Source of the DNA: a virus
Virus record (IMG/VR): IMGVR_UViG_3300044846_003365
Location: 1-64,000 of that record
Strand: one strand, 5' to 3'
DNA length: 64,000 nucleotides
Shown piece by piece: positions 1-16,672 of this stretch. The first letter of the stretch is position 1; the number at the start of each line of letters is the position of its first letter. The translations under genes were made by a program, and so were the position numbers. The notes under the pieces are model-generated. The model worked only from the letters and a program-made list of their open reading frames with translations, made no database searches and was not told the origin of the DNA.

Positions 1-1011
1 GACAAAACCGTTAATGTTTTTTTCCAAGAAGTTAGAAAAGTAAGTTGTAGCTAGCTTGTCTGCTTTTCTTTGGTTAAGTACCGCTTCTGCTAAAGCTTTG
101 ACTTCTGAAGAGCCATCACGAACTAGCATTTTAAGCTGGTCTTTGGAAGCAGACTTTTGACCAGAAGGAGTGGTCTCCGTAATGTTAGCGCCCATTGCCT
201 CGAAACGGCGAACTAGTTGAATATTACTGGTAATGGAAATTCCATGGGACTCTTTACCCCAAGCCTTAACTCTCTCACCGTAGTCGTTTAGCTGGTCATA
301 CTTTTTCTGAGAATATTCCAAGTCAATTTTGGCACCATTTAGCTCCATGCTAGTAACTATTTTTCTGGTAGCCATTTCTAGCTCATAAGGAATGCTATAA
401 GTTTTTCCCGGACCACACTGCTCCCAAAACTGCTCCCAAAGTCGCATAGTGAGAACTGTGTCCAAAGCACCATAGGCCCAATAAGGCTCAAAGTTAGTCG
501 GGACAGTTCCCCAAGTCCAACCGTTTTCGGCTAAGGAAGCGTCTAAGTGTGACTGGAGTGCTGCAGCCTGTGGGTCGACATACTGCTGAGTAAGTTTCTT
601 AAGTGCGCCAGAACCTAGAGGGTCAATAATCTGAGCCATAATCATGGTGTCGTGAGCTCTTTGCCAAGGCATTCTCCAATTTGATTGGATGTCAAACCAC
701 TTAGCTTCAAAGGCAATGTTGTGACAAACAATAGGACCATCAAATCTGTTCATGGCCTCATAAAAAACTCCAGACCATTCTTTCCAAGGAATTGACCAAC
801 CAGTCATTCCGTCTCCAACTTGTACAAGCCTGATTTGACCACGCCAAGGGGATAGGGCGTCAGCTCTAGGATTGCCTAGTAGCTCGCCAGTTTCAATGTC
901 TACAGCTATGGCGTTGTGTGGGCGACGCTCTCCAAGCCAAGTAATAAATTGATTAGCTTTTTCTATTGAATCAACCAGATTTAGTTGAACGTCAGATAGT
1001 CCAGATGTCAT
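1..1011 (-). CDS. DNA polymerase family A, N-terminal 3'-5' exonuclease region (runs off the window edge)
   Basis: Manual translation from ATG at 1011 (AAGGA RBS): MTSGLSDVQLNLV...AVDIETG (ExoI DxE)...HNIAFEAKWF (ExoII)...YGALDT (ExoIII)...ELEM...MELNGAKID. Open to position 1. Not in the ORF track. Confidence 0.9.
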   Translation of the reverse strand, partial: MTSGLSDVQLNLVDSIEKANQFITWLGERRPHNAIAVDIETGELLGNPRADALSPWRGQIRLVQVGDGMTGWSIPWKEWSGVFYEAMNRFDGPIVCHNIAFEAKWFDIQSNWRMPWQRAHDTMIMAQIIDPLGSGALKKLTQQYVDPQAAALQSHLDASLAENGWTWGTVPTNFEPYWAYGALDTVLTMRLWEQFWEQCGPGKTYSIPYELEMATRKIVTSMELNGAKIDLEYSQKKYDQLNDYGERVKAWGKESHGISITSNIQLVRRFEAMGANITETTPSGQKSASKDQLKMLVRDGSSEVKALAEAVLNQRKADKLATTYFSNFLEKNINGFV

Positions 1012-1864: not shown

Positions 1865-3082
1865 CTAGCTTAACCTATCTTCTAAAGCCTTTAGACGGTC
1901 TTCTAAAGATTGAATTTTTTCCTGCTGATGTTTTAGAACTGGAATAACTGCAGCCACTAGTCTGTCATAAGATATGCTTTGAACTTCTCCCTCAAAATTA
2001 TATTCAACAAATTCTTCAAGGCCAGCTTCTAATAAATCTTCGGCTATAAATCCAGGTATTCTACGTAAATTTTCATAAGAATTGCTGTTATTTTCATATT
2101 CAGATTTATCAACCCAAGTCTTGGGCTGAAGATTTAATATATTTAACCCAGTATTTAACGATTGCTGGTCCAACTTATATTTAGCTGCAGAACTTACTAA
2201 ATGAAGAACATAAAAATTAGCAGCAGCAGCTATGTACCTAGTGTTAGCTGCAGAACCAGTAGTGGGGGGGCCGAGCGCCTGAATTTGTCCGTTTTCAGAT
2301 GTAACCGAAGTCCCAGCTCTTAAGCTTAGGGTAGTTGTCAAGTTGTTTACGGTGTAGTTTTCGGACTCGTCTAACTCGCTTGCGCCAACAGCGTTTGCAG
2401 CAATATTACCCGAAGTAATTGTTTGGGAGCCAATCATAGAGCCAGTAATGGTTGGGATTCTGCCGGTACCAAAAGTTCCAGATGTAATTTTGTCTGCATC
2501 TAAGCTTGGAATTCGTGCATCTGCAAAAGTTCCAGATGTAATCTTTCCAGCGTCTAAGTTTGGAATCTTGTCAGCCGTTAGGCTTGGAATTCGTGCGTCA
2601 TCAAAAGTTCCAGATGTAATCTTTCCAGCGTCTAAGTTTGGAACGTCTGAGGCAGCAATAGTTGAAGTTGTAAAAGCAGTGTTTCCAGAAGCTTTAACAA
2701 ACCCAGCACTAAAAGTTACGGCACCAGTTCCACCCTTATTAACTGGTAGTGTGCTGGTGATAACGGTAGTGCTTGATAGGTTTACAGAGTTTTGAGCTAG
2801 TTTTTCAGCGGTTATAGATGCATCAACTATTTTAGGTGTTGTTACAGCACCGTCTTCTATGTTGCCTGTTCTAATTGCATCAGGTGCAATTTTTTCATTG
2901 GTAACAGAACCCTTGTCTAGGTTGGCTGCTGTAATAGTAGCGGTTCTAATTTGAACAGAAGTAACGCTATTTTCAGCTATCTTTCTAGGGGCTGGGCGCT
3001 TGCCAATCTGACTGATTCTAGCGTTAACTTGGGAAATGTTACTGTTAAGGCTGTTTTTAGCTCTGTATCTTCTACTCGCCAC
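1865..3082 (-). CDS. Tail fibre with C-terminal intramolecular chaperone (peptidase S74-like)
   Basis: VTxxKI repeats and IPxLDAxKITSGTF repeats, then SSAAKYK...GFIAEDL...YDRL and a terminal coiled coil. Confidence 0.85.
   Translation of the reverse strand: MASRRYRAKNSLNSNISQVNARISQIGKRPAPRKIAENSVTSVQIRTATITAANLDKGSVTNEKIAPDAIRTGNIEDGAVTTPKIVDASITAEKLAQNSVNLSSTTVITSTLPVNKGGTGAVTFSAGFVKASGNTAFTTSTIAASDVPNLDAGKITSGTFDDARIPSLTADKIPNLDAGKITSGTFADARIPSLDADKITSGTFGTGRIPTITGSMIGSQTITSGNIAANAVGASELDESENYTVNNLTTTLSLRAGTSVTSENGQIQALGPPTTGSAANTRYIAAAANFYVLHLVSSAAKYKLDQQSLNTGLNILNLQPKTWVDKSEYENNSNSYENLRRIPGFIAEDLLEAGLEEFVEYNFEGEVQSISYDRLVAAVIPVLKHQQEKIQSLEDRLKALEDRLS
2440..2650 (-). repeat. Intragenic tandem repeats encoding (I/V)P(N/S)LDAxKITSGTFxxxR
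   Basis: aaaagttccagatgtaat(c/t)ttt recurs three times on the + strand near 2471, 2525 and 2603. Confidence 0.85.
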
Positions 3083-6000
3083 GTTTGTCCACCTGCCATT
3101 CTGGAATTAGTTGTAAATTAATTTTTTCTGGGAAAGTTACTGAGTCAGGGACTTCGACAGAGAAAGAGTTAATCTTTCTTAAAATAACTTTTTCTCCTAC
3201 GCTGTCAAATCTAGGTTCGAGGTTGCTAGAAAGACGCTGGTTAATAAAGTCATCATTAATAATCAGTGAGCACCAATCACCTGGAGCATAAGTGCCAACT
3301 ACTGGCTGTACAGAACCATTTACAGAAAGAGAGAACTTGCCGTCTGGTGGTCTGCTTTCTTGCAAGTATCTTTCTGCGTAGCTATACAAAGTTTCGCCAT
3401 CAGAAAAATCTTCAGTAGCTTCATCGTCATCAAGAAGTGGCCATCTTTTTTGAGCGTCTGGCTCGTTTAACAAAGAGGTGTCAGTAGCAGCAGCGTAAGG
3501 CTGGCTAATGTCATCTCCTAGGTCACCAATGTTTCCAACCATAAAGAACCTAGTAGCTGAGTTTTCAGCCGACTCTTCTAGTTGCAGGTCGCTAACGTTT
3601 CCTGGGAACTCAAAGACCAGTCTGTCTGCTCCGTAGTAGGAAAGTGGGACAGTTTCGCCTGTAGGCAAGACTCCGCCAGGCAAACTAGCAATGTAGTTTT
3701 TAACGGCAGTTGGCAATATTGGAAGCAAGACAAGTTCTCTTCTAAAAATACCAGTATCTGCGTCAATATAGCAGTCAACTCTGTACTCAAATCCGTCAAT
3801 AATGTCGGAATACTTATCTAACTCTTCACCAATGTTACGTAGCTCAAAGCCTCTAAATAGCAACGGGAAGACGTTGGTATCTGAGAATCCGTCAGTAGAA
3901 AAACCAAAGCCTAACTCTGAAGAATAAGTGTATGGTCCGTAAGTACCGTAAGAAATAGTGGCCTCTTGTAGAGCAGAAGCGTAGCCATAAATTGGGGTGC
4001 TACTGGCAAGCTGAACAGCATCGGTTACGTTATAAGTCAGTGTTTTAAGAGTTGGGTTAGCAGTTGCAACAGTATAAGTTCCAGCAATCGGGCTATCAGA
4101 TGAAGCCGTACCATTAGGAATAGCGTCTGCCTCAACTACTGTCCTAGTGGAGGCTGTTGCAACCGAAACTGTGTTAGAAGTTACGGCAACAATGTTGCAG
4201 TTAGTGACGTTAAATTCGGCACTGTAAATAGTTGCCAAACCACCTACAGCCACTGTTTGGCTAGCTACTGCAACGTTGTAAGTAACTCCAGTTTTTGGAT
4301 AGGAGAACTGGGTACTACTAACCACAGTTGCAATAGCATTTTGAACGTTAAAGATTCCGTTTTGCTCTACAATCTCAGCGGTAGTGGTTGTAGAAAGAGT
4401 AGTCAGAGGTATGTCTTTATCAAGTCCAGTAGCGTTAAGCACTATGGTGTTTTGAGTTTTAGAGATAATGTCAGCGCCAGTATAAACTTTGTTTAGTGGG
4501 CTAGATGAGCCAGAAGCCGTTCCGCTAACACTACGAGCTCCGCCAGTATCAGAAGCAGAGGTAGAGGAGTAAGTAATAGTGTTGGTAGTTACGCTACTGA
4601 TGTTAAATGTTCCGTTGTAGCCACCTAGTGTCTTAGTTACAGTTCCAATGTTAGTTCCAGTAAATAGACCAGGCTCACCAGTTTGATAGGTGTAGTTTAT
4701 GGTAATAAAAGGTTCGTAAGACCCAGAGCCTTCTCCATAGACACCCATGTAGTTGTTTGGGTTAGCATCTGAAGCTGGAGTTGTGGGGGAGAAAAGACTA
4801 GTTGGGGTCTGTTGACCAACAATAATTCCTCTAGCACTTCCATTTAAGAAATACTGTCTCCAGTTAGTTGGTAGCTGAAGGCTTCTAGTTACAGTACCTG
4901 TCGCCCAGCCAGTCCAGTCTGGAGCTTCTGCTCCAGAAATGTGGGCAGGTGGGGCAGAAATAGCTAGGCTAGTTTGAGAGTGAATTCCTAGGAAAAGCGT
5001 AGAGTTTGACCAACCAACGCTAGGTCTCCTAGTCATTGTAAGGGTCATAGAGTCAATAGAAGTAACGTTCGCTAAAGTAACTCCAGTAGCTAGCTGGTTG
5101 GCAAAGTTTTGGAATCTAGCAGCTCCAGCCTCGGCACCAAAAGTGTTTGATGGATTTCCTTGGTACATAGTATTAAGTTGACCGTAGTCGGCAGCCGTGT
5201 TGACCGTGAGCCTACCTCTACCTTGGGATTGGAATTCCCAAGTCCAAGACTCCAAACAGTTCAACACTGTTGAAGCGGTTGCAGTAGAAGAAGCGGTTCC
5301 AGACGGATTATTGTACTTAAAAGTTCTAGCAGTTACTCCAGAAATTGTGGCAGTAGCGTTAAATGAAGTAGGAATGTTAAACGCACCAGCAATGTCAATA
5401 GAGTCGCCATTAGAGAACCCGTGGTCGGCAGAGGTAGTAACCGTAGTTACGTTATTTACTCTTTCCAATCTAGTGATAGTAAAGCTCCTAGAAGAGCTAA
5501 CCCCAGAAACAACAACACTACTGTTAACTAGGAATCCGTGAGCAACGTTAGTAGTGAGAGTCACATTTCCGCCAGTAGAAGTCAAAGAAGTTACACCAAC
5601 TGAGATTGAGGCCAAGTTTTTAATCTCGATGCTTCCAGAAGCACTATTGGACTGGATGTTGTGGCTAACATTAGTTGCACCATTCCCAGTATAAAAAACA
5701 GCAGTGTTAGTTGACTTGGTGTATTGGTATCTACCTATTCTGTATGAGTCAGATAGTCCTGTAACAGTCACTGTGTTTCCAGTTGTCAAGTTGTGGGCAG
5801 CTGAAGTAGTCACTGTGAAGGTAGCATTGCTACCAGTAAAGGTCATAGCCCTTTGACTGACCGCGGCGGTATCAGCCAAGCCAGTAACAGTCAGCCCCCT
5901 GCCAACCAAAAAGTTGTGAGTTGATTTTGTAGTATAAGTAATTCTGTTTCCAGAGACGGCTCGCTTGACTACAGTAGCGTAGTCTTTCATGTTAGAAATA

Positions 6001-7331
6001 GTTATGCTGTCACCTGGAGCGTAGTTTGCTGTTTCTCCAGTAGTAATAACAGCAGCCCTTTGAGTGAGAGTCTCTTGTCTAACTTCTTTTCTTGTTAAGA
6101 ACTGAGTAGGTTTACCAGATACGGTGGCGATTGGGGCAGAAAGAGAAAGCGGTAGCTTATTTAAAGAAGTATTGATTCTGTACTGAAAGGTATTTTCATC
6201 AATTGGGTTTACTGGTATTTGAAACTCGCCATCCAATAGCCTGCTAGATGAGTCGGGGGTATCTAGTCCCTCTACTTGAACGTAAGCGGTAGCGTATAAA
6301 TCGTGTGGCTCTACTGTTCTAACGGTAACAACTGATTCGTCAGGTGCTAAAGAATCTACTTGAAACTCTGAAATTCTGTAAAGGTCAGTTGCCACGTTTG
6401 CAGTAGCCAAGGTTCCGCTGACGTCTGACACAACTACTACGTTGCCATTTACACTTTCTACTTTCCTAAGTCCATCAATAATAGGGGAAACGTTTTTAAC
6501 TTGAATTTCTTGACCTGGAACTAAGTTAACAGTGTCATCAACAATTAAAGATGCAGTTCCGCCACTCACAGAGCGGACCAATACGTTAGCTGTCACAAAG
6601 TTAAAAGGCCTAATTTCAGAATTTGGAAACTCGATTCCAGCAAAATCGTCTTCCATAGCTGTAATTAAAATTCTTACAAAGTCATAGGTGTTTGTTCTGG
6701 CGTAAACAGTCGTATTAATGTAAGTTCCATTTGGAATAACTGGTGAGCCAGGTTTATCAGCATTAGATAAAGTAGTAAAAGTTGTTCTTGTAATTGGAGG
6801 AATTTCAGGGGGGCCGACGGCTGGAGTTAAGACTGTGTAGTATCCATCGTAAGCACTGTTGGAGATGTCTAGAAACGAGTATCTAACTGTAGAGTTGGGC
6901 TCTATTTCATAAGCAACCCCACTCTCTAAAGTGACATAAGCAAATCCATCTCTAACAACTAGGGTCGCCTCAAAAACTTGACCGAAAGTCTTCCAAATTC
7001 TTCTGTGGTGGAAGTAGCTAGTAAACTCAGAAGCATTGACGCTTAGGACTCTGTCATTAACGTTATAAGAGCGGGACCAAATAATTCCACCCCAAACGCA
7101 GACACCGTCTCTAACTATATAAAGTCCAGTTCTACCGGGCATAGTAGATTCATAAAGTTGAAGGTGAGCAGTCTCATCGCTAATTGAAATATTTCCAGAA
7201 AAAGCTCCAGCACCTTTTAGAGCACGCTCGTAAGAAACGCCCTTAAATGGGATTTCCGCAATAGGTTGATTGGTAACCAAATTTACGACAAAGTAACGGT
7301 ACTTAGCCGTAGTGTTGTCTTGGACTGCCAT
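3072..7331 (-). CDS. Large minor tail (hub/baseplate) protein with a nested beta-repeat insertion
   Basis: N-terminus YRYFVVNLV...IVRDGVCVWGGIIW and C-terminus GTYAPGDWC resemble actinophage siphovirus minor tail proteins. Follows Dit and tape measure. Confidence 0.8.
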   Translation of the reverse strand: MAVQDNTTAKYRYFVVNLVTNQPIAEIPFKGVSYERALKGAGAFSGNISISDETAHLQLYESTMPGRTGLYIVRDGVCVWGGIIWSRSYNVNDRVLSVNASEFTSYFHHRRIWKTFGQVFEATLVVRDGFAYVTLESGVAYEIEPNSTVRYSFLDISNSAYDGYYTVLTPAVGPPEIPPITRTTFTTLSNADKPGSPVIPNGTYINTTVYARTNTYDFVRILITAMEDDFAGIEFPNSEIRPFNFVTANVLVRSVSGGTASLIVDDTVNLVPGQEIQVKNVSPIIDGLRKVESVNGNVVVVSDVSGTLATANVATDLYRISEFQVDSLAPDESVVTVRTVEPHDLYATAYVQVEGLDTPDSSSRLLDGEFQIPVNPIDENTFQYRINTSLNKLPLSLSAPIATVSGKPTQFLTRKEVRQETLTQRAAVITTGETANYAPGDSITISNMKDYATVVKRAVSGNRITYTTKSTHNFLVGRGLTVTGLADTAAVSQRAMTFTGSNATFTVTTSAAHNLTTGNTVTVTGLSDSYRIGRYQYTKSTNTAVFYTGNGATNVSHNIQSNSASGSIEIKNLASISVGVTSLTSTGGNVTLTTNVAHGFLVNSSVVVSGVSSSRSFTITRLERVNNVTTVTTSADHGFSNGDSIDIAGAFNIPTSFNATATISGVTARTFKYNNPSGTASSTATASTVLNCLESWTWEFQSQGRGRLTVNTAADYGQLNTMYQGNPSNTFGAEAGAARFQNFANQLATGVTLANVTSIDSMTLTMTRRPSVGWSNSTLFLGIHSQTSLAISAPPAHISGAEAPDWTGWATGTVTRSLQLPTNWRQYFLNGSARGIIVGQQTPTSLFSPTTPASDANPNNYMGVYGEGSGSYEPFITINYTYQTGEPGLFTGTNIGTVTKTLGGYNGTFNISSVTTNTITYSSTSASDTGGARSVSGTASGSSSPLNKVYTGADIISKTQNTIVLNATGLDKDIPLTTLSTTTTAEIVEQNGIFNVQNAIATVVSSTQFSYPKTGVTYNVAVASQTVAVGGLATIYSAEFNVTNCNIVAVTSNTVSVATASTRTVVEADAIPNGTASSDSPIAGTYTVATANPTLKTLTYNVTDAVQLASSTPIYGYASALQEATISYGTYGPYTYSSELGFGFSTDGFSDTNVFPLLFRGFELRNIGEELDKYSDIIDGFEYRVDCYIDADTGIFRRELVLLPILPTAVKNYIASLPGGVLPTGETVPLSYYGADRLVFEFPGNVSDLQLEESAENSATRFFMVGNIGDLGDDISQPYAAATDTSLLNEPDAQKRWPLLDDDEATEDFSDGETLYSYAERYLQESRPPDGKFSLSVNGSVQPVVGTYAPGDWCSLIINDDFINQRLSSNLEPRFDSVGEKVILRKINSFSVEVPDSVTFPEKINLQLIPEWQVDKRGE

Positions 7332-7376: not shown

Positions 7377-9149
7377 TTAACCTATCCAGCCAGACCTGTA
7401 GAGAACAATGATGTAGCCACCAGTAAGAGTAGGTGCCTCTGGCCTTCCAAAAGAAATAGAGTTAACGCCAGTTTCTAGATAGAACCAATCTGACAAGGTG
7501 TCCAAAAAGAACCTATATCCACTAGATTCTCCATTTAGGTAGACCTCTTGCCTATAAGTATCTATTTCTAGAATATCTTCAGTGTTTAGGCTGGCTCTTA
7601 CGTTAGTTCCAGTTGCTGAAGTTTTTGCAAAGTCAGCTAAATCTAAAGTAGGGCTTGTGTACTGAATGTAGTATTTATCACTCGGAGCCGTAGGGTCATT
7701 TACAACGTCTATAACTTGAATATCTGTTCCGTTAACTGAGCCACTGTCGTTAGTACTGTTTTCAATGTCTACAAAGTCGCCTATGGCTAGATTTGTCTCG
7801 GTAGCAAAAAATGCAGTTACAACGTCATCTTGCCTACTAAAGTGGGTGATTGTCTTAGTAGTGGTAGATTTGCTTCTCAAAGGCTGAGCCAATGAAATAA
7901 TAGAATCATTTGTAAGATTTGCTATGTATGTTCCAACCTCAGTGGGGCCGTGAACTTCAATTAATAGTGGTACTGGAGTGTTTCCAATGTTTTGAATAGG
8001 AAGGGACGCTTCTCCAACAGCGTCAACAGCAGCTAAATTTATTTGCTCAGATTTTCTTCCGTTTTCATCTCCACCTACCCATTCATATTTAATCGGGTCA
8101 GGGGCTCTGAGGGTCAGAGAGAATTCAGTTTTACCTCTAGGACTAACTGTGGTAATTTGAGGCCTATCAACTAACCTAACTAAAGAAGCTTTAGGTGGCT
8201 CTTCGTCTACAACTAAGTAGCCACTCTTTTTTACCAAATCTATGGCAACAACTAGTTTGTCTCTAGCAATTTCTACGTACTCTTTTGTGGGAGGGAAAAA
8301 TACCCCACTCAAGGAAATTTCTCTAGTTGCGTATCTCCCTCTAACATCGTAAGAACCGTCTCCTAGCCCCCTAGAAATGTCTGGAACTTCTGGCTCTGGC
8401 TGTCCCCACCAGCCCTCTAAGTCGGTACACACCCAAAGAATGCCGTCCTCATCTATGGTGTTAAATTGTAAGCCATTCAGGGTTATGTCAGCATTTAGTT
8501 CCATTCCAGTAATGTTTGGAAGTGGGACTGGGCGCATTACTGTATTGACAGAATTATTCTCTCTGTCTTGGGAAATAGACTCGAAGAAACTGTTTACGTA
8601 AGCGTTTTGTTCAAACATAATTGCATCTATTAGGTAATATCCTAAAGATGCTTCAGACTCTAATTGATAAATTTGAATTTCAGCAAAAGCAGCTGGATAC
8701 TCTGGCCTTTCAGGTAGAGCAAAAGGTGCAGTTCCAGTTGCTGAAATAGAAACAAATTTATTGTCAACTCCAAAAACGGTGGTATCACTATAAAAGGTCT
8801 GCAAAGGGACTTCAGCTTCTTCATCCTCAAACCAAAGAATTGCGCACCTAAAAGTTCTTGATTCTAGAAGATTTGAAATTTTGACAAAAGCAGATAAGGT
8901 GTATTCAAGTCCAGGTGTTACTGGCATCCTATAGCCGTCTTGTATGGTCAGCTCAGGGCCTTGACCAATGTTTTTAATACCGCAATCTACTTCACCTATT
9001 GGCAAAGAAACTTTCAATGAATATTCTCCAGATTTAGCATCTTCTGAAGTAACTTCTAGGGTGGAGTCTAGGTTGGTTTTTCGCCAAAAAGCTAAGCTTG
9101 CGCCCCTGAAACTTGGGTTTTTAATGTAGTTAATTCTTGTTGTCGTCAC
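7377..9149 (-). CDS. Distal tail (Dit)-like protein with N-terminal carbohydrate-binding-like module
   Basis: NYIKNPSF...LEYTLSAFVK...IDAIMFEQ (CBM-like), then LEGWWG...GDGSY...LRAPDPIKY...RSGWIG. Directly downstream of tape measure. Confidence 0.8.
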   Translation of the reverse strand: MTTTRINYIKNPSFRGASLAFWRKTNLDSTLEVTSEDAKSGEYSLKVSLPIGEVDCGIKNIGQGPELTIQDGYRMPVTPGLEYTLSAFVKISNLLESRTFRCAILWFEDEEAEVPLQTFYSDTTVFGVDNKFVSISATGTAPFALPERPEYPAAFAEIQIYQLESEASLGYYLIDAIMFEQNAYVNSFFESISQDRENNSVNTVMRPVPLPNITGMELNADITLNGLQFNTIDEDGILWVCTDLEGWWGQPEPEVPDISRGLGDGSYDVRGRYATREISLSGVFFPPTKEYVEIARDKLVVAIDLVKKSGYLVVDEEPPKASLVRLVDRPQITTVSPRGKTEFSLTLRAPDPIKYEWVGGDENGRKSEQINLAAVDAVGEASLPIQNIGNTPVPLLIEVHGPTEVGTYIANLTNDSIISLAQPLRSKSTTTKTITHFSRQDDVVTAFFATETNLAIGDFVDIENSTNDSGSVNGTDIQVIDVVNDPTAPSDKYYIQYTSPTLDLADFAKTSATGTNVRASLNTEDILEIDTYRQEVYLNGESSGYRFFLDTLSDWFYLETGVNSISFGRPEAPTLTGGYIIVLYRSGWIG

Positions 9150-12100
9150 GATGCGGCACCTTTACGTAGTTGTAATGCTAGAACTCTAGAAATCTTGGTA
9201 GCTAGTTCAGACTCGTTCATTCCTTCGGCTGGGTAAACACTGATGTTAATGTTGCCTTCTAAGCCAGAAGGTTCTTTTTTAGAGAGCAGTTCAATCATGG
9301 CTCTATCTCTTACAGACAATCCTGAAGAGTCTAGAGGCTCTACACGCTCTGCACGCCCAGCTTCAGCAATTTGAGCAAGCATACCGCCCGGTCTTGCAGC
9401 TACAATTCCACCTTCAGCTAGTCGAGGTAGCCTAATTTCAGGAATTTTAGGTAGGTTGAATCCAACTGATTGCCCACCAATAATTGGTACCCAGTCTGGG
9501 ACGGTGAACTTAAGAGTGTTGATGGCTGAAATAAGATTGTTCACACCTCTAATAGCAAAGTTTATAAAGCCTTCAAAGAATCCAATCAAGCCATTTGCAA
9601 TTCCCTTAAAGAAGTCAGAAATTCCCTTAAAGACGCCCATAAAGAATGATGAAAAGCCTTGAATAGCTGGAGTAACAAATTTAACAATGGCTTCTACTAT
9701 TTTACCAAGTACTGTAACAACTGCTGTGATAAATGGTGCAACAATTTCAAAAGCTTTTGCTAAAACTGCAATTATAATTCCAGCAACAGTAACAATTATC
9801 TTTATAAGTCCGCCAATTATAGGAATAAGTATTCCCAACAAAAGCTGTATAACAGGGGTAACAGCTTTAATTATTGCTGTAAAAGCTGGGACAACCGCTT
9901 CTATGATTTGAGTAATAAGCGGAGCCAGTGTCTCAATAAGGCTAAGAATAACTGGAACTAATGTCTGCACAATTATGTCTACAACTGGCATAATTGCTTC
10001 TATAATCATCATAAACACTGGGATAAGCGAATCTATAATTACTGGTAATACTTCACCAATAGCCGCAATTATAGTTTGAAAGACTGGCAATAACGCTTCT
10101 ACTATTGACGCAATCATCGGCAATACTTGGGCTATTGCGTCAATAATTAGTTGAACTATTGGCAAAAGTTTTGGAACTATGTCTGCAATCGTGGTTGCAA
10201 TTAGTTCTACAACTGGAACTATGGCTTGAGCAACGACTTCTAAAATTCTAGAAAATACTGGAACAAGTGTGTCGGTTAGTTGAGTAAAGGTTGTTGCTAA
10301 TGTGCCAAATGTTCCCTGCAAAGTTTGCCATATTGCATCTATAGAAGCAGCAAATTCAGAGTTACTGTTGTAAAGCCCTATAAATAATCCAGCTAAAATT
10401 GTCACTATTCTAACTATTGGGTTCAGGCCCAAAAATGCTTTTACAACGAAGGCAATAACAAATCCAAAAGCTTTAGCTACACCAGATAGAGTAGTTACGG
10501 CCAAGATGGTACCAGTGATAGGTCCTATAAAGTCTAGGATTGATTTAACTAGTTTGTTTTCTAAAATGTCAGCAACTATTCCAGCTGCAAAAGCTAAGGT
10601 ATCGAAGAAGGCCTTTGGAGCCCCTGAGTCAGCAAAGGCTGCAATTATTCTTGTAATGTTTACAATTAAGTTAGCCATAGCTGGGCCAGCTAAGATACCG
10701 TTTCTTAGAATTTCTCCAACATAAGGAGCGCCTTCTTTTAGGGTGTCCCAGAACATACCTATTTCTGGCATCGCTCCAAGCCCAATAATTTCTTTAATTA
10801 AGGCTCCGATTGACTGGAAGATAGAAATGCTGTTACCAGCAGCTCCTCTAAAGAATTCTTGTAGTCCAGCACTGTCATCACCTATAGCTGCAAAACCAGC
10901 CGTGGCATCTTTCAGCCACTGAATCATCATGTCTCCGCCAGAACCTGGCTGGAAGTTGGCCATGATAATGTCGCCAAGGCCGTTAAATACGTTGCCAAAC
11001 ACTTCTGATAGGTCGCCAAGAATTTCTTTTGACCTAGTAAAAAAGTCAGTAAGTCTTCCAGATTCCTGCTCAACGTTTAGGAAGTTCTTAAAGGCGTCAA
11101 CTTTTCCTACCAAGAAGTCCATAAAACTTCTAATTAGTGGGTCTAGCTCTTCCATAATGATTAGGAAAATTTCCCAACCGTCGCCCGCTATGTCACCAGC
11201 TTGAGAAATAGTGCCAGCGGTAGAAGTAAATAGTCCCCCAAGTCTTTCCACGTTCTGAGGGTCAACAATCGAGTCAGTTAGCTTTGTTACAAATGTTCCT
11301 AAGGCAGTACCTACCTCGCCAAAACCTTGTTTAAGAGTGGGGAATGCAATATCAATTACTCTTTTAATTTGAGTTTCGAGTACTGGCAAGAACCCAGAGG
11401 CCACAGCTTCTTTCAGCTCGTCTAGCAGTGGCCTAATGTCGGCCAAGAATCTAGCAAAGTCAGCTTGGCTTGCTGTTAAGCCAGCTAGCGGGTTTGAGCC
11501 ACCTAATTGCCTCTGAGCATCGGCTAAATCTTCTCTAGCCCTTCTTAGAGCTTCATTAGCGTCATCTAGACGCTCAGCATTTTCTTGCTCAGTTTCGCCT
11601 CTATTTTCAATTGCTTCTGCTAAATCCTCTTCGGCTTCTATAACGCCTTCAAGGTTATTTATGTCACCGCCAATTCTTGCCTGCTCTGCTGCAAGGTCTC
11701 TATTGGCATCAATGGCCCTACGGAGGTTTAAGTCTGCTTCTGCAAATGCAAGTTCTGCATCTCTTCTAGCTCTAGAGTTAGGTGGTAAGTCTTGTACACG
11801 TGCAAGTGTCTCTCTTGCTCGCTCAAGCTCAAGGGCTGCTTTCTTTTCCGCTAAGGCAGCATCCTCAGCGTCAAAGTTTAATTGCTGAAGTTCTTCTCTA
11901 CCCTCACGTATTGCTCGGTTTAGTCTATTTTGAGCATCAGTTACTCTATCGTTGGCATCTTCTAGCCTGTCAGCGTTGTCTGAGACTACTCTTTGTAGAT
12001 TTTTTTGAGCGTCATTTACAGCTCTAATTTCATTTTTTAGTGAGCGAGCAGCGCTTCCACCAGCCTCACTTAGCCTTTGAGCAGCAGCCCCCACTCCACC

Positions 12101-12520
12101 TAATGCTAAATTAGCAAGTGCAGAAGCAATTTTTAATTGTACTAATACACCAATAAAAGTTAAGGCAGCTGGTATAGCACCTCCTACTGCACCAGCTAAT
12201 CCAGCGAGACCACCAATTAGGGAGCCTATGGAACCAAGAACTACACCTAAAGTGGTTTGTAAAACAAAACCAGTTTTTTGTAATCTTTTCCAAGACTCTC
12301 CAGCAGCGTCAGCTTCGGGAGCAATGGCTTTCAATCCATTAGAGATTTTTTGAAAAAGAGTGCCTTGAGAGCCACTAAAAGCTTTAGAAAATTTTCTACC
12401 AGCATTTTGACCTGCTGTTGAAACAGCGCCACTAGCGCCTTTAATTCCTCTTTCAATGTCTTTAGCTACATCTGTTGTTATAGCTCGCACAATAATTTGT
12501 GCGGAACCTACTACTGCCAT
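9146..12520 (-). CDS. Tape measure protein
   Basis: 1124 aa, coiled coil plus amphipathic repeats, PRLAEGG motif near the C-terminus. Follows the tail chaperones. Confidence 0.92.
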   Translation of the reverse strand: MAVVGSAQIIVRAITTDVAKDIERGIKGASGAVSTAGQNAGRKFSKAFSGSQGTLFQKISNGLKAIAPEADAAGESWKRLQKTGFVLQTTLGVVLGSIGSLIGGLAGLAGAVGGAIPAALTFIGVLVQLKIASALANLALGGVGAAAQRLSEAGGSAARSLKNEIRAVNDAQKNLQRVVSDNADRLEDANDRVTDAQNRLNRAIREGREELQQLNFDAEDAALAEKKAALELERARETLARVQDLPPNSRARRDAELAFAEADLNLRRAIDANRDLAAEQARIGGDINNLEGVIEAEEDLAEAIENRGETEQENAERLDDANEALRRAREDLADAQRQLGGSNPLAGLTASQADFARFLADIRPLLDELKEAVASGFLPVLETQIKRVIDIAFPTLKQGFGEVGTALGTFVTKLTDSIVDPQNVERLGGLFTSTAGTISQAGDIAGDGWEIFLIIMEELDPLIRSFMDFLVGKVDAFKNFLNVEQESGRLTDFFTRSKEILGDLSEVFGNVFNGLGDIIMANFQPGSGGDMMIQWLKDATAGFAAIGDDSAGLQEFFRGAAGNSISIFQSIGALIKEIIGLGAMPEIGMFWDTLKEGAPYVGEILRNGILAGPAMANLIVNITRIIAAFADSGAPKAFFDTLAFAAGIVADILENKLVKSILDFIGPITGTILAVTTLSGVAKAFGFVIAFVVKAFLGLNPIVRIVTILAGLFIGLYNSNSEFAASIDAIWQTLQGTFGTLATTFTQLTDTLVPVFSRILEVVAQAIVPVVELIATTIADIVPKLLPIVQLIIDAIAQVLPMIASIVEALLPVFQTIIAAIGEVLPVIIDSLIPVFMMIIEAIMPVVDIIVQTLVPVILSLIETLAPLITQIIEAVVPAFTAIIKAVTPVIQLLLGILIPIIGGLIKIIVTVAGIIIAVLAKAFEIVAPFITAVVTVLGKIVEAIVKFVTPAIQGFSSFFMGVFKGISDFFKGIANGLIGFFEGFINFAIRGVNNLISAINTLKFTVPDWVPIIGGQSVGFNLPKIPEIRLPRLAEGGIVAARPGGMLAQIAEAGRAERVEPLDSSGLSVRDRAMIELLSKKEPSGLEGNINISVYPAEGMNESELATKISRVLALQLRKGAAS

Positions 12521-12553: not shown

Positions 12554-13006
12554 CTAAACCAATGGACCGTCTAGTACAGAGCCAAGTTGCGAGACATCTG
12601 TAGAAGGTATGAATGGTTTAGTAGCTTTTTTCCTAGGATTAAATGGCTTAATGTCTCCCAAATCATCTATTGGCTCGTTTGGTGAGGCAAAAAATTCATC
12701 GTTGGCTGAAGCACTGACGTAAGACTTTGAGGAATTAGAAGCGTATTTATAGGTCTCGTTATATAGATTTCTATAAACACTTATTCTAATTTTTTCGTGA
12801 GCTTGGGCTTGCTCAGCTGTGGAATAGTTCATATCTTCTTCAAAGAAGTAATGAACAACATCTAACATGTCAGATGCTTCCATTTCTAGAAGATTTATTC
12901 CGTTCACAAGAGCCTTACCGTTAATAAAGTGCCAGAGGTCTATCGCCCAAATTAAGAGACTTCTGGCTGCGCTTCCGGGCGTCCAGAGTATTCCTCCATT
13001 AGCCAA
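12554..13006 (-). CDS. Tail assembly chaperone, C-terminal (frameshift) reading frame
   Basis: -1 frame overlapping the end of 12952..13290, immediately upstream of tape measure, no good RBS of its own. Confidence 0.7.
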   Translation of the reverse strand: MANGGILWTPGSAARSLLIWAIDLWHFINGKALVNGINLLEMEASDMLDVVHYFFEEDMNYSTAEQAQAHEKIRISVYRNLYNETYKYASNSSKSYVSASANDEFFASPNEPIDDLGDIKPFNPRKKATKPFIPSTDVSQLGSVLDGPLV

Positions 13007-13290
13007 GCAACAATGTCAGCTAGGGTTTCAACTGTTACGATTCTGTCCTTGCTTTCAGCTAGAGAATTAAATCTCTCTAGGCTTTCGTCTAGAAGAACAA
13101 CTTCAAAAAATTTGTTAACGGCTTCCGCTGACTTAACGGCGTCGTCTACGTTTGCTAGTGCAACTAGTGACAGCAAAGTACGGCCCTGAACCTGAGTCAC
13201 GCAGTGGAACTCTTCGCCGTGTAGTTTGAAGGATAGGGGTGTTACGTTTCCTTCGCTTTTTCCTGCACCAAAATCTTTAAATCTTGACAT
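12952..13290 (-). CDS. Tail assembly chaperone
   Basis: 112 aa ending WLMEEYSGRP, AAGGA RBS, between tail genes and tape measure. Confidence 0.8.
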   Translation of the reverse strand: MSRFKDFGAGKSEGNVTPLSFKLHGEEFHCVTQVQGRTLLSLVALANVDDAVKSAEAVNKFFEVVLLDESLERFNSLAESKDRIVTVETLADIVAWLMEEYSGRPEAQPEVS

Positions 13291-13375: not shown

Positions 13376-13885
13376 TTAGATAAAGTGTCTAAGCTGAGTC
13401 GATAAATAGGGGTTTGGCTTAGTGCCTGGATGCATAACTCTAGGGGTACCAATTACCCTGCTTCCTTTTCTAAAAACTAAAATTGTATTTGGAGGATTGG
13501 GAGTAATAATGTGGGCTCTTGTGCCCTCGTGGTGGGCCAAGGCATAATTCTTGTTTGACCCGATTGTTAAATACTGACCGTTTCTAAGTGGGTAGTGTTC
13601 CATGTTTATGGATTTTCTTAAAGCACCAGTTCGAACTCCAACCATTCTTTTTGCGTCTTTTACAGCTTTATTGCCTTTTACTTCTAAGTACTTCCAAAGA
13701 CCGCCAGCGGGGGTGTTGAGTTCTATTTTTAGCTTCTCTTTAAAAATTACTACGTTTGTGATGGTGTAGCTTAAGTGAGTGCCAGAGCCTTTATAAGAAC
13801 GAGACCCAGCCCTTCTAAGCGAGCCAGTCAGTCTCTGGCCAGCATAAATAAAGGGGCTGTCTGGAATTAAACCATAGGCTGGCAT
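13376..13885 (-). CDS. Tail completion / neck protein (HK97 gp10-like)
   Basis: VRTGALRKSI...YALAHHEGT...HPGTKPNPYL motifs. Confidence 0.75.
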   Translation of the reverse strand: MPAYGLIPDSPFIYAGQRLTGSLRRAGSRSYKGSGTHLSYTITNVVIFKEKLKIELNTPAGGLWKYLEVKGNKAVKDAKRMVGVRTGALRKSINMEHYPLRNGQYLTIGSNKNYALAHHEGTRAHIITPNPPNTILVFRKGSRVIGTPRVMHPGTKPNPYLSTQLRHFI

Positions 13886-13886
13886 T

Positions 13887-14393
13887 TTATGGGACCGCCA
13901 TAGTGACTTGTAGCACTACGGTTTGGAATCCACCTTCAGGCGGGCTAACTTCTACAGCTGCAATAACACCAACACCGTAACCAGTCTCGTCCCACATGTC
14001 TAGAAGCTTCATGGAGTCCATAAGAACCCAAGCATCGATAGCAGAAGAAGTAGAAGTTTGCTCAATCTTTTCTGCGCTAGGTGGCCTACCATTTTGACCA
14101 ACTACCGCCACTTCTCTTGAGATAGAAACATTTATAGTGGCACTTCTAGGAACGTTACATCTCATAGGCTCGTTAGCTTGAGCTCCTGGTGCTCCTAAGT
14201 AAAGCTGGACAAGGTTTACAACCAACTGCTCGCAGTCTATGGCTGGCTGGCCTATAGTCCAGTACTGCCTGCTAGGTAGAGGAACGTTATAAGATTGGTA
14301 AATGCTTTGGACTCTTTGCAAAACACCGTCCATCATGTTTTTTAAATTTAGAGCGTCTTCAGATACTCCAGTAACGTCAATTTGCGTAGCCAT
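13887..14393 (-). CDS. Tail terminator-like protein
   Basis: 168 aa with DCEQLVV and PPEGG, in the head-tail connector block. Confidence 0.6.
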   Translation of the reverse strand: MATQIDVTGVSEDALNLKNMMDGVLQRVQSIYQSYNVPLPSRQYWTIGQPAIDCEQLVVNLVQLYLGAPGAQANEPMRCNVPRSATINVSISREVAVVGQNGRPPSAEKIEQTSTSSAIDAWVLMDSMKLLDMWDETGYGVGVIAAVEVSPPEGGFQTVVLQVTMAVP

Positions 14394-14401
14394 GTCTTTT
14401 C

Positions 14402-15511
14402 CTAACTGCTTAGCTTAATTTTTAGGTTCCCAGTTTCTAGCTCGGCCACCTGCTCTACTCCGTTAACTGTTTTAGTAGCGTATAGAGTCCAAGTACCGGG
14501 GTCTACAATTCCTAGAGCAGCGTAAGCCTTGCTGTAGGGAATAGAGAACGACAGAGACTCTGCACCATTATTAAGGGTTATGCTACTGGATTCCAAATCT
14601 ACTGACTTAGTGCTTCCGTAGTTTCTTAGTGTCACTACTGGAGTCCAACCAGCTTCGTCAAAAAATACCGATACATCGGAGCCAGTAGCGGTGGCCGAGT
14701 TCCAAGTAGCAGGTGTTGACTTAACTACGGTTAAGTCAAAATTTACGTTGGCCGTTAGAACTGCTTCTTTTGCGTTATAACGTCTGGCTCTAGGGGCGTC
14801 TGGGGAGAAAACTCTTGAGCGACGTCTTGCTTTGTCTGGGTTAGTGGACTTAAGGAATAGGTCTACAGCGTAGACACCAGTTCTCAGGTCATCAATAAAA
14901 TCTTGGCTGTCTAGGAGAGTATAAGAAACTCCTTGACGAGAAATAGAAGTAACACGCTGTGGAAGAGCGCAGTCATCGTCTCCAGACCACAGCTTTGCGA
15001 ACTCGATGGCTAAGGTCCTAGCAGCCATCTTTCCAGCTACAGGAACTGGATATCCATAAGTGTAAGTAACCTCTACGTTACACGGAGTCCAAGGAACTCC
15101 AGCAGTTGCTTGAAGTACAGAGTGGTCAACTAGATAGTAAGAAGATGGGTCAAGAATGTCTCCTTGACGGTTTCTAACAGCGTGTACTTTTGTAACATTG
15201 CTTCCACGAAGCCTAATTCTAGATTCTGGGGATAAACCATCTGCAACTAGCTCAGCGTAATTGTCAAAGTCATTTAGAGGAATGTTGTAGACCTCGCCAG
15301 AGATAAGAATACCTCCATAGGTCCTAGAAGATGCACCCATTCTGTAGGCACGCTTAGCACACACATAGCGCTCAGTCACAGTTGTCTCACCAGTAAATTT
15401 ACGGCCAGACATTGCCCATAGAAGGTATGAAGCAACCTGAGCGGCCTCTGTGGCGTACTCAGTTTGAGAGTACTGTCCCAGTTCAGACGGTTCTATCCAA
15501 AGTGATGTCAT
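14402..15511 (-). CDS. Head-to-tail adaptor with C-terminal extension
   Basis: LLWAMSGRKF...CALPQRVTSISRQGVS...TGVYAVDLFL resembles cluster-B-like actinophage adaptors. Confidence 0.75.
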   Translation of the reverse strand: MTSLWIEPSELGQYSQTEYATEAAQVASYLLWAMSGRKFTGETTVTERYVCAKRAYRMGASSRTYGGILISGEVYNIPLNDFDNYAELVADGLSPESRIRLRGSNVTKVHAVRNRQGDILDPSSYYLVDHSVLQATAGVPWTPCNVEVTYTYGYPVPVAGKMAARTLAIEFAKLWSGDDDCALPQRVTSISRQGVSYTLLDSQDFIDDLRTGVYAVDLFLKSTNPDKARRRSRVFSPDAPRARRYNAKEAVLTANVNFDLTVVKSTPATWNSATATGSDVSVFFDEAGWTPVVTLRNYGSTKSVDLESSSITLNNGAESLSFSIPYSKAYAALGIVDPGTWTLYATKTVNGVEQVAELETGNLKIKLSS

Positions 15512-15595: not shown

Positions 15596-16672
15596 TTAGG
15601 AGGTTGGGTCCTCGTTAGAGCGGATTACGCGGTCCACAGTTACGTCAGGGTTGTAGTTGACGTTACCTGGAACGTTGTACTGAGTAGTTGAGGTCGATGG
15701 GTTCGACTTAACTACAGCAGTGGAGCTTGTTACTGCGGTTGGGGCCACGTCTGAGACAACCTTAGTGTAGCTAATGGTGTCAGAAGTCTTACTTAGAATT
15801 GTGTAAGTACCGTTGAAGGTGCTGTCAACTCCAGAAACAACTACAGACTCGCCAACGATGAATCCGTGGTTAGCCTCAGTAGTAATTGTGGCAACGTTGG
15901 TAGTAACAGCCTTAGTTACTACGTTGTACTCAGGTGATACGTCTAGGTTAGTAACAGCTGTGTAGCCAGTGTCCTCGCTAGAGTCGTTAATACCGTCGTA
16001 GTTCCAAGTGTAGAATCCGTTTAGACCTACTGGAGCCCATGAAGCACGTGCGTAGCTGTAAGGACGCTCTGCAGCAACTGGGAACTCCCAACGGCCGTCA
16101 GGTCCGTCTTCGAAGTTAACGTTTCCAAGGCCGTAACCTTCGAAAGTAGTTGCTAGCATGCCGTTCTCAATTACGCGGTCTCCAGACTGGCGTAGCTTTG
16201 CGTATGGGAATACCCAGTGGAAGTAAGGAAGAGTCGAAGCTCTCTTACCATCCTTTACAGCAAATGACCAAGCCTCAATTGAAACACCGTTACCAGCAGG
16301 GTCGTCACCTACGGCTGGGGCTGCCCAACCAATTGACTTGTTGTCTGGTGAACCAAATGTTCCAAGGTTCTTGCGTAGTAGTAGACCACCTGAAATTAGA
16401 CCAGTTAGTTCTGGGTCTGGCTCACAAATTGCAAGCTCCATGGTGATTCTCTTTAGTGTGTCTGGTGACTTGTAAGTTACGCAGACGGTTCCGTTAGCGG
16501 ACTTTTCGGTGATTTCGTCGCCCTCTTCATATTCTGGGGTGAACGAGACTCGCATGAAAGCAGAAGTTGTGTAACTGTCTCCAGGTCCGTTTAGTAGATT
16601 TCCTGCAGCGTCCAGACGGGTGACACGAATCGACACACCCTGAATGCTTGCAGCATATTCCTGAGTAGCCAT
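15596..16672 (-). CDS. Major tail protein with a C-terminal inserted beta-module
   Basis: IRVTRLDAAG...TPEYEEGDEI...ICEPDPEL, followed by the TTEANHGFIVG...FNGTYTI module. Confidence 0.88.
   Translation of the reverse strand: MATQEYAASIQGVSIRVTRLDAAGNLLNGPGDSYTTSAFMRVSFTPEYEEGDEITEKSANGTVCVTYKSPDTLKRITMELAICEPDPELTGLISGGLLLRKNLGTFGSPDNKSIGWAAPAVGDDPAGNGVSIEAWSFAVKDGKRASTLPYFHWVFPYAKLRQSGDRVIENGMLATTFEGYGLGNVNFEDGPDGRWEFPVAAERPYSYARASWAPVGLNGFYTWNYDGINDSSEDTGYTAVTNLDVSPEYNVVTKAVTTNVATITTEANHGFIVGESVVVSGVDSTFNGTYTILSKTSDTISYTKVVSDVAPTAVTSSTAVVKSNPSTSTTQYNVPGNVNYNPDVTVDRVIRSNEDPTS

Follow-up and report, generated by a model that had tools for sequence, protein, structure and literature searches.

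A predicted out-and-back arm of nested FCCH-like barrels with a jelly-roll tip in a Tal-like tail hub protein of an actinophage

Introduction

Recursive insertion of a small β domain is known from Si3, an insertion in the β′ subunit (RpoC2) of cyanobacterial RNA polymerase that consists of recursively inserted HABAS/sandwich-barrel hybrid motifs (PMC10895346, PMC11515920), and a 2026 survey of domain insertions gave Si3, as a six-level nested architecture, as the extreme (PMC13114784). Here we describe P0001, a 1419-aa protein encoded by a minus-strand open reading frame (ORF) at 3072..7331 of a 64,000-nucleotide stretch of viral DNA (positions 1 to 64,000 of IMG/VR record IMGVR_UViG_3300044846_003365; the whole stretch is called the window below). 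Like Si3, P0001 appears to hold a small β domain repeatedly inserted in its own copies, in about six levels, as a long arm whose two ends join the host protein at a single loop; in the predicted structure, copies of one domain family are nested in the order A1-B1-C-B2-A2 over several levels, with level 2 placed by exclusion. The two systems differ in fold and site, Si3 having the HABAS fold and lying in the polymerase trigger loop, whereas P0001 is predicted to have FCCH-like closed barrels and to lie in a virion hub. Unlike Si3, P0001 carries an unrelated jelly-roll cargo in its innermost barrel, and homology is not implied. No RNA polymerase chain was among the structural matches listed in the four lists obtained for our models, the best listed being FCCH and FNR-type barrels; families that are not listed may still match.

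The FCCH domain of E1 enzymes (PF16190; UBA1/UBA6) and the barrel insert of phage endosialidases (K1F, NF, phi92) are present as single copies, whereas in P0001 the copies would be nested. In phage tails, single FCCH domains on tail tubes (PMC13576161) and carbohydrate-binding modules (CBMs) on actinophage baseplates (PMC13033339) have been published. The hub protein gp23 of the Aeromonas siphophage Avs-1 bears an FCCH-like extension of two subdomains that was not resolved in the map and for which no nesting was reported (PMC13612043); it was likened to P0001 by description only, and has two subdomains against a six-level nest. The ‘evolved’ Dit, Tal and BppU proteins of Gram-positive siphophages, e.g. 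of mycobacteriophage Douge (PMC13033339), resemble P0001 in that a sugar-binding-type module is inserted in a baseplate protein, the hub core is discontinuous and peripheral domains are inserted in it; their module is attached to the host domain itself or to a linker, whereas that of P0001 would be carried at the tip of a nested arm six barrels long. For phage tails, the literature searched yielded only single FCCH decorations and CBM insertions; nested barrel arms were not among the structures described.

Motif halves in P0001 and other tail proteins

Region 4020-6060 falls inside the single ORF and corresponds to residues ~424-1104. The original prediction, made from the DNA letters and their translations, had read it as five first halves of a β-module, a complete module with an unrelated domain, and five second halves, each module being inserted in a loop of the previous one. 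A string search found the five first halves in that order at residues 430, 467, 508, 553 and 593, and the five second halves, likewise in order, at residues 905, 946, 994, 1040 and 1082. Mutually aligned, the first-half units read strand, TTxxxH(G/N)(F/L) loop, strand and long strand, and the second-half units form an (F)NGxYxV...TxxY hairpin. The claim of one complete module before the inserted domain stood in part: a near-complete module was found at residue 632, and its last strand (882-902) comes after the inserted domain.

All features of P0001 and the modules described here are on the minus strand. With boundaries taken from the models below, the outgoing units of levels 1 to 5 comprise residues 408-447 (TTGETANYAPG; 5991..6110), 448-484 (TTKSTHNFLVG; 5880..5990; profile match 5e-9), 485-526 (TTSAAHNLTTG; 5754..5879), 527-575 (TNVSHNIQS; 5607..5753) and 576-611 (TTNVAHGFLVN; 5499..5606). 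The first five strands of the innermost barrel, level 6, comprise residues 612-682 (TTSADHGFSNG; 5286..5498), and its last strand, after the inserted domain, residues 882-902 (4626..4688). The returning units of levels 5 to 1 follow as residues 903-942 (YNGTFNI; 4506..4625), 943-991 (LNKVYTG; 4359..4505), 992-1037 (FNVQNAI; 4221..4358), 1038-1079 (FNVTNCNI; 4095..4220) and 1080-1125 (IAGTYTV; 3957..4094).

Profiles were built from the halves and searched against the ORFs of the window. First halves were matched with i-Evalues of 5e-9 to 3e-12. The second-half profile, which is short (~18 residues), was weak (5e-5 to 7e-3) and missed 2/6 second halves in P0001, which fell below threshold; automated second-half counts are therefore unreliable, and selected homologues were counted by eye. 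Outside P0001, the half-profiles matched only the major tail protein, in which the predicted intact module lies at residues 259-304 of 358 (15761..15898, gene 15596..16672; phrog_792, E 1.7e-20; half-profiles 4e-12 and 2e-4). The module said to be present earlier in P0001 itself proved to be two complete tandem copies: M1, residues 246-302 (6426..6596), which aligns with both half motifs, and M2, residues 330-388 (6168..6344), identified by module alignment. A degenerate copy in the 590-aa Dit was recognized by eye in the translation at residues 441-499 (7653..7829) and remained below the profile threshold.

Nested barrels in the predicted structures

An AlphaFold2 (AF2) model of residues 420-1110 was generated from a 12-sequence alignment (mean predicted local distance difference test, pLDDT, 83.4; predicted template modeling score, pTM, 0.50), and the pairing of halves was read from the first and last residues that a structural aligner matched to solved structures, not from contacts. 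Barrels of the E1-FCCH and FNR types, aligned over 72-81 residues (~78), mapped to spans of 290, 366, 464 and 552 residues of the model, each within the next. The narrowest, residues 612-902 (model range 193..483), matched the FCCH domains of UBA1/UBA6 and the phi92 endosialidase barrel (aligner value 8.4-9.4); residues 576-942 (model range 154/157..523) matched the human UBA1 FCCH domain (aligner value up to 9.6, root-mean-square deviation 2.5, 20-22% identity); residues 527-991 (model range 108..572) matched the β-barrel domain of a helicase (4b3g; aligner value 6.3); and residues 485-1037 (model range 66..618) matched FNR-type barrels (aligner value 6.3-6.4). It follows from these nested ranges that, in the model, second halves 1, 2 and 3 complete the barrels begun by first halves 5, 4 and 3, respectively, so that levels 3-5 pair as had been foreseen, first half n with second half 6-n, and levels 3-6 are nested.

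The unit that recurs is a small closed antiparallel barrel that superposed on the UBA1 FCCH domain. Pfam PF16190 (E1_FCCH) matched P0001 at residues 627-649 only (17.4 bits, E 0.0046), below its cut-off of 29.5 bits; precomputed PF16190 matches exist for the orthologue P0005 and the relatives P0008 and P0010. Each barrel starts one strand before the unit drawn in the original prediction, and the long strand that ends one unit is, in the model, the first strand of the next barrel and ties neighboring barrels together. Foldseek searches with the whole model also returned long alignments of low TM (~0.1) to birnavirus VP2, which were disregarded as artefacts of nested jelly rolls.

As a replicate, the stalk alone of a 1233-aa homologue that lacks the inserted domain (L028 Tal, residues 452-962) was modeled from 21 sequences (pLDDT 88.5, pTM 0.68). 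Its nested ranges correspond to levels 6, 5, 3 and 1, the last being model range 6..484, so that across both models each level except level 2 was matched at least once. We infer the pairing of the level 2 halves by exclusion, because all other levels are accounted for; the two halves are also similarly conserved, with 51% and 48% invariant columns. The proposal that each module is inserted in a loop of the previous one is thus supported by the nested ranges in two models and, as described next, by equal half counts and by partner halves that vary together.

Homologues and divergence of paired halves

Short Tals of 661-676 aa, taken from three of the loci retrieved with P0008 (L001, L004 and L013 of L001-L027; these also hold short Dits), consist of the N-terminal part of the hub, two tandem modules corresponding to M1 and M2, and the C-terminal part joined directly to them. 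P0001 aligns with them over residues 5-417 and 1000-1419, and ~418-1112 of P0001 is therefore an added arm. In all five longer Tal homologues counted by eye (P0018, P0020, P0026, P0035 and the L028 Tal; 1196-1457 aa), a single complete module was preceded by five first halves and followed by five second halves, and no unequal numbers were seen among them. By profile, 13 homologues had an unbroken run of six first halves, followed by 5-6 second-half matches in 10 and by fewer in 3, second halves being under-detected. No member of the Tal family with a clearly different nesting depth was found, only stalk-less and six-level forms.

The divergence of first half n was compared with that of second half 6-n. 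The correlation was r = 0.87 for 7 orthologues, a value reached by 6/120 permutations, and r = 0.93 for 12 sequences, the best of the 120 possible pairings; pairing the halves in the same order gave r = 0.46 and 0.33, respectively. With five levels this is modest evidence, yet it is independent of fold prediction.

Tals of ~1220-1250 aa share the hub of P0001, and the metagenomic members counted by eye have 5 + 1 + 5 halves; unlike P0001, they have no jelly roll in the innermost barrel, and their stalk is 32-41% identical to that of P0001. The ‘minor tail protein’ gp89 of Microbacterium phage Big4 was placed with them by tblastn match and length only. In two proteins of Dit type, P0008 and P0048, seven first halves and one complete module were accompanied by only two free second halves. 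Separately, the ORF just upstream of the Tal gene in two loci (L028:2-1477 and L030:1-1440) terminates in five second halves and then the strand (YRSGW...) that normally closes Dit; as its start lies beyond the locus edge, it could be either an independent gene or the terminal part of a long Dit.

The tip domain

The original prediction had placed an unrelated, aromatic-rich domain of about 200 aa at ~4690-5270. The domain and its extent were recovered by fold searches as residues 683-881 (4689..5285; model range 264..462), and the aromatic enrichment proved mild: W+Y+F make up 10.6% of the domain and 9.4% of the whole protein, although 6/12 Trp of P0001 lie in it. It is inserted ahead of the last strand of the innermost barrel (882-902) and so splits the level 6 module, the barrel range ending at model residue 483 and the jelly roll at 462-465.

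In the model this domain is a β-sandwich that superposed on 7VBO, the founding member of CBM96, which has a positively charged binding groove (PMC9971899). Its neighbors in the ESM Atlas were CBM96 clusters (score 0.96), and similar domains were found in Bacillus phage tail fibers (BFVD). The characterized 7VBO binds alginate, and 8WAB is titled a chondroitin sulfate-binding module. Residues 683-881 had no Pfam or NCBIfam match at E ≤ 1, including to the CBM96 profile (PF24517), and the domain is therefore described as having a CBM96-like fold rather than as a demonstrated member of the family. It contains 8 Arg and 0 Lys, with 7/8 Arg invariant among 7 orthologues, as well as conserved aromatic residues. 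It would most likely bind a glycan of the host cell envelope, which may be anionic, and so aid adsorption.

By sequence, the tip domain is confined to the ~1400-aa subfamily of P0001, and the sequence search found no shorter protein that carries it. It is missing from the 1220-1250-aa relatives. A 1415-aa Tal in another locus (L030:1486-5733) has no tip and has a ~190-aa insert, jelly-roll-like by eye, in its second first-half unit, where it separates the H-loop from the strand that follows; at this position P0031 and P0046 have a gap of 217-218 aa. Since the tip is absent or elsewhere in relatives, the arm and its cargo vary independently.

Assignment of P0001 as tail hub

In transcription order, P0001 is preceded by a 1124-aa tape-measure-like protein (9146..12520) and then, directly, by the 590-aa Dit (7377..9149), which matches SPP1_Dit, Sipho_tail and phrog_33; in the window the Dit gene is whole and adjoins the Tal gene directly. 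The Tal gene of siphophages is usually placed after those for the tape measure and Dit, and P0001 is assigned to the Tal position because of this gene order. The N-terminus of P0001 matched phrog_1885 (‘minor tail protein’, E 6.7e-25). Its N-terminal hub part, residues 1-240 (6612..7331), is 40% identical to the N-terminal part of 661-aa Tals and has 56% invariant columns among 7 orthologues; its C-terminal hub part, residues 1126-1419 (3075..3956), shares 45% identity with the corresponding part of short Tals and matched Pfam Prophage_tail at 15.5 bits (E 0.014), below the 31.3 cut-off. A profile search of PDB sequences with the orthologue alignment gave no match at E ≤ 1. The closest isolated phages were the large Microbacterium phages Big4, Pumpernickel and A3Wally and Actinomycetia phage DSL-LC01, and the window seems to derive from a large actinophage genome.

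Proposed architecture and alternatives

We consider it highly probable that P0001 is the tail-tip hub of a large siphovirus-type actinophage and that, as the models suggest, it builds a side arm of six small β-barrels plugged one within another, the innermost of which holds a sugar-binding-type domain. The N- and C-terminal parts of the hub would flank two ordinary tandem FCCH-like barrels and then a third that starts the nest: its distal loop would hold a fourth barrel, the loop of which would in turn hold a fifth, up to a total of six levels. The chain would run outward through the initial strands of barrels 1-6 (three in each, and five before the tip in level 6), the CBM96-like jelly roll would be made next, ahead of the last strand of barrel 6, and the chain would run back through the remaining strands of barrels 6-1 to re-enter the hub beside its exit point. 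Each barrel would be held by the outgoing and the returning chain, with long strands bridging neighboring barrels, and the outcome would be a stiff out-and-back arm of six barrels on each subunit, whose end presents a glycan-binding-type domain for adsorption. Other Tals are trimers, and if the hub is trimeric there would be three arms per tail tip. An FCCH-type barrel is an inserted domain in E1 enzymes and endosialidases and has adjacent termini and a tolerant distal loop; these properties would make the recursion possible, and the nest may well have originated by repeated insertion. Along the arm (3957-6110), the outgoing run (residues 408-682) has an isoelectric point of 9.9 and the returning run (882-1125) one of 4.5, an opposite charge that may help the two to zip together.

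Were the ~40-aa first-half and ~45-aa second-half units instead to fold with their sequence neighbors, the region would be an ordinary tandem array, beads on a string with a jelly roll mid-way. By eye, the tail of each first-half unit together with the first strand of the next does resemble the second-half hairpin, and P0008 and P0048 indicate that runs of first halves can lack partners on the same chain. Against a tandem array, both AF2 models place ~78-residue FCCH barrels across spans of 160-550 residues, a unit of 36-40 aa amounts to three strands or half a barrel, Tal homologues have equal numbers of halves, and partner halves co-vary in divergence; the five second halves and Dit last strand that end the ORF upstream of Tal in L028 and L030 may count in the same direction. 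We regard a tandem array as very unlikely. The halves could also pair between the subunits of a Tal trimer, the returning run of one chain completing the outgoing run of its neighbor in a domain-swapped bundle. The models are monomeric and could not have revealed such a swap, and if the Dit-type halves on separate polypeptides do pair, module halves can assemble between two chains. Outgoing half 5 and returning half 1 are, however, joined to the same innermost barrel by short connections, which makes pairing within the chain the shortest path, and the monomer models need no partner chain to reach good confidence (pLDDT 83-88); a swapped bundle thus appears highly improbable.

A nested arm may be real and yet end in a structural or protein-binding β-sandwich, which might dock the downstream 405-aa fiber-like protein or hold the arms on the tail before infection. 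This is unlikely in our estimate, although a fair number of observations would suit it: the tip has no Pfam CBM match, its fold is, among the matches listed, equally like the prodomains of the TGF-β family and the accessory domains of BAM/BcsB, many relatives work without any tip, and the domain was not found in any shorter protein. Several points also weigh against the nested arm on a tail hub as a whole. Level 2 is absent among the matches listed in the four structural-match lists, and level 1 is truncated in the P0001 model, its first strand (410-417) lying outside the modeled residues. The structural support consists of two predicted models on alignments that are shallow (12 and 21 sequences), pairing was taken from terminal aligned residues instead of a contact map, and a pTM of only 0.50 for the P0001 model leaves it uncertain how the barrels are oriented to one another and, with that, how stiff the arm is. 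The hub identity, for its part, is based on gene order, one PHROG and sub-threshold Pfam matches, with no match among PDB sequences.

Implications of a nested arm

If confirmed, the arm of P0001 would rank with the deepest nested domain insertions known, and would bring into the virion a design for which cyanobacterial RNA polymerase is the other published example. Nesting would explain why the long ‘minor tail proteins’ of large actinophages resemble two unequal repeat arrays, and it supplies domain boundaries, which tandem-repeat tools would misplace, as would naive construct design. On a trimeric hub it would further mean three arms per tail tip, each keeping a sugar-binding-type domain clear of the hub. 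Arm and cargo would be expected to vary independently from one relative to the next, with consequences for how freshwater and soil actinophages recognize their hosts. The tip-less form is presumably present in cultured Microbacterium phages, for instance Big4 and Pumpernickel, in which the architecture can be tested by electron cryo-microscopy.

In a broader reading, which seems to us evenly balanced between right and wrong, FCCH-like barrels are a phage-tail construction kit for out-and-back rods, in which nesting depth sets the length and cargo is carried at different levels (innermost here, level 2 in the L030 type, none in the Big4 type); the two runs would perhaps be on separate polypeptides in some cases, and, with the hub core counted as host domain, the series of hub, six barrels and jelly roll would make seven successive insertions, one more than the six-level extreme of the survey (PMC13114784).

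Neighboring genes of the tail module

Just downstream of the Tal gene, a 405-aa protein (1865-3082) matched the C-terminal ends of several tail-fiber and tail-protein PHROGs (phrog_1330, E 4e-28) and is likely a fiber or second receptor-binding protein, to judge by these matches. Residues 7-94 of the Dit (8868-9129) gave a weak match to CBM_4_9 (E 0.0017), below the cut-off; if the match is real, sugar-binding-type domains would be present on both Dit and Tal. Two overlapping small ORFs of 112 aa and 150 aa (12554-13290), with no family match, are situated immediately upstream of the tape-measure gene, where the pair of tail assembly chaperones made by programmed frameshift is usually encoded. 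The major-tail-protein gene (phrog_792, 15596-16672) lies upstream of the head-tail adaptor and tail-completion genes (13376-15511), and in the window no tail-tube gene lies between tail completion and chaperones, an order that is unusual for a siphophage tail module.

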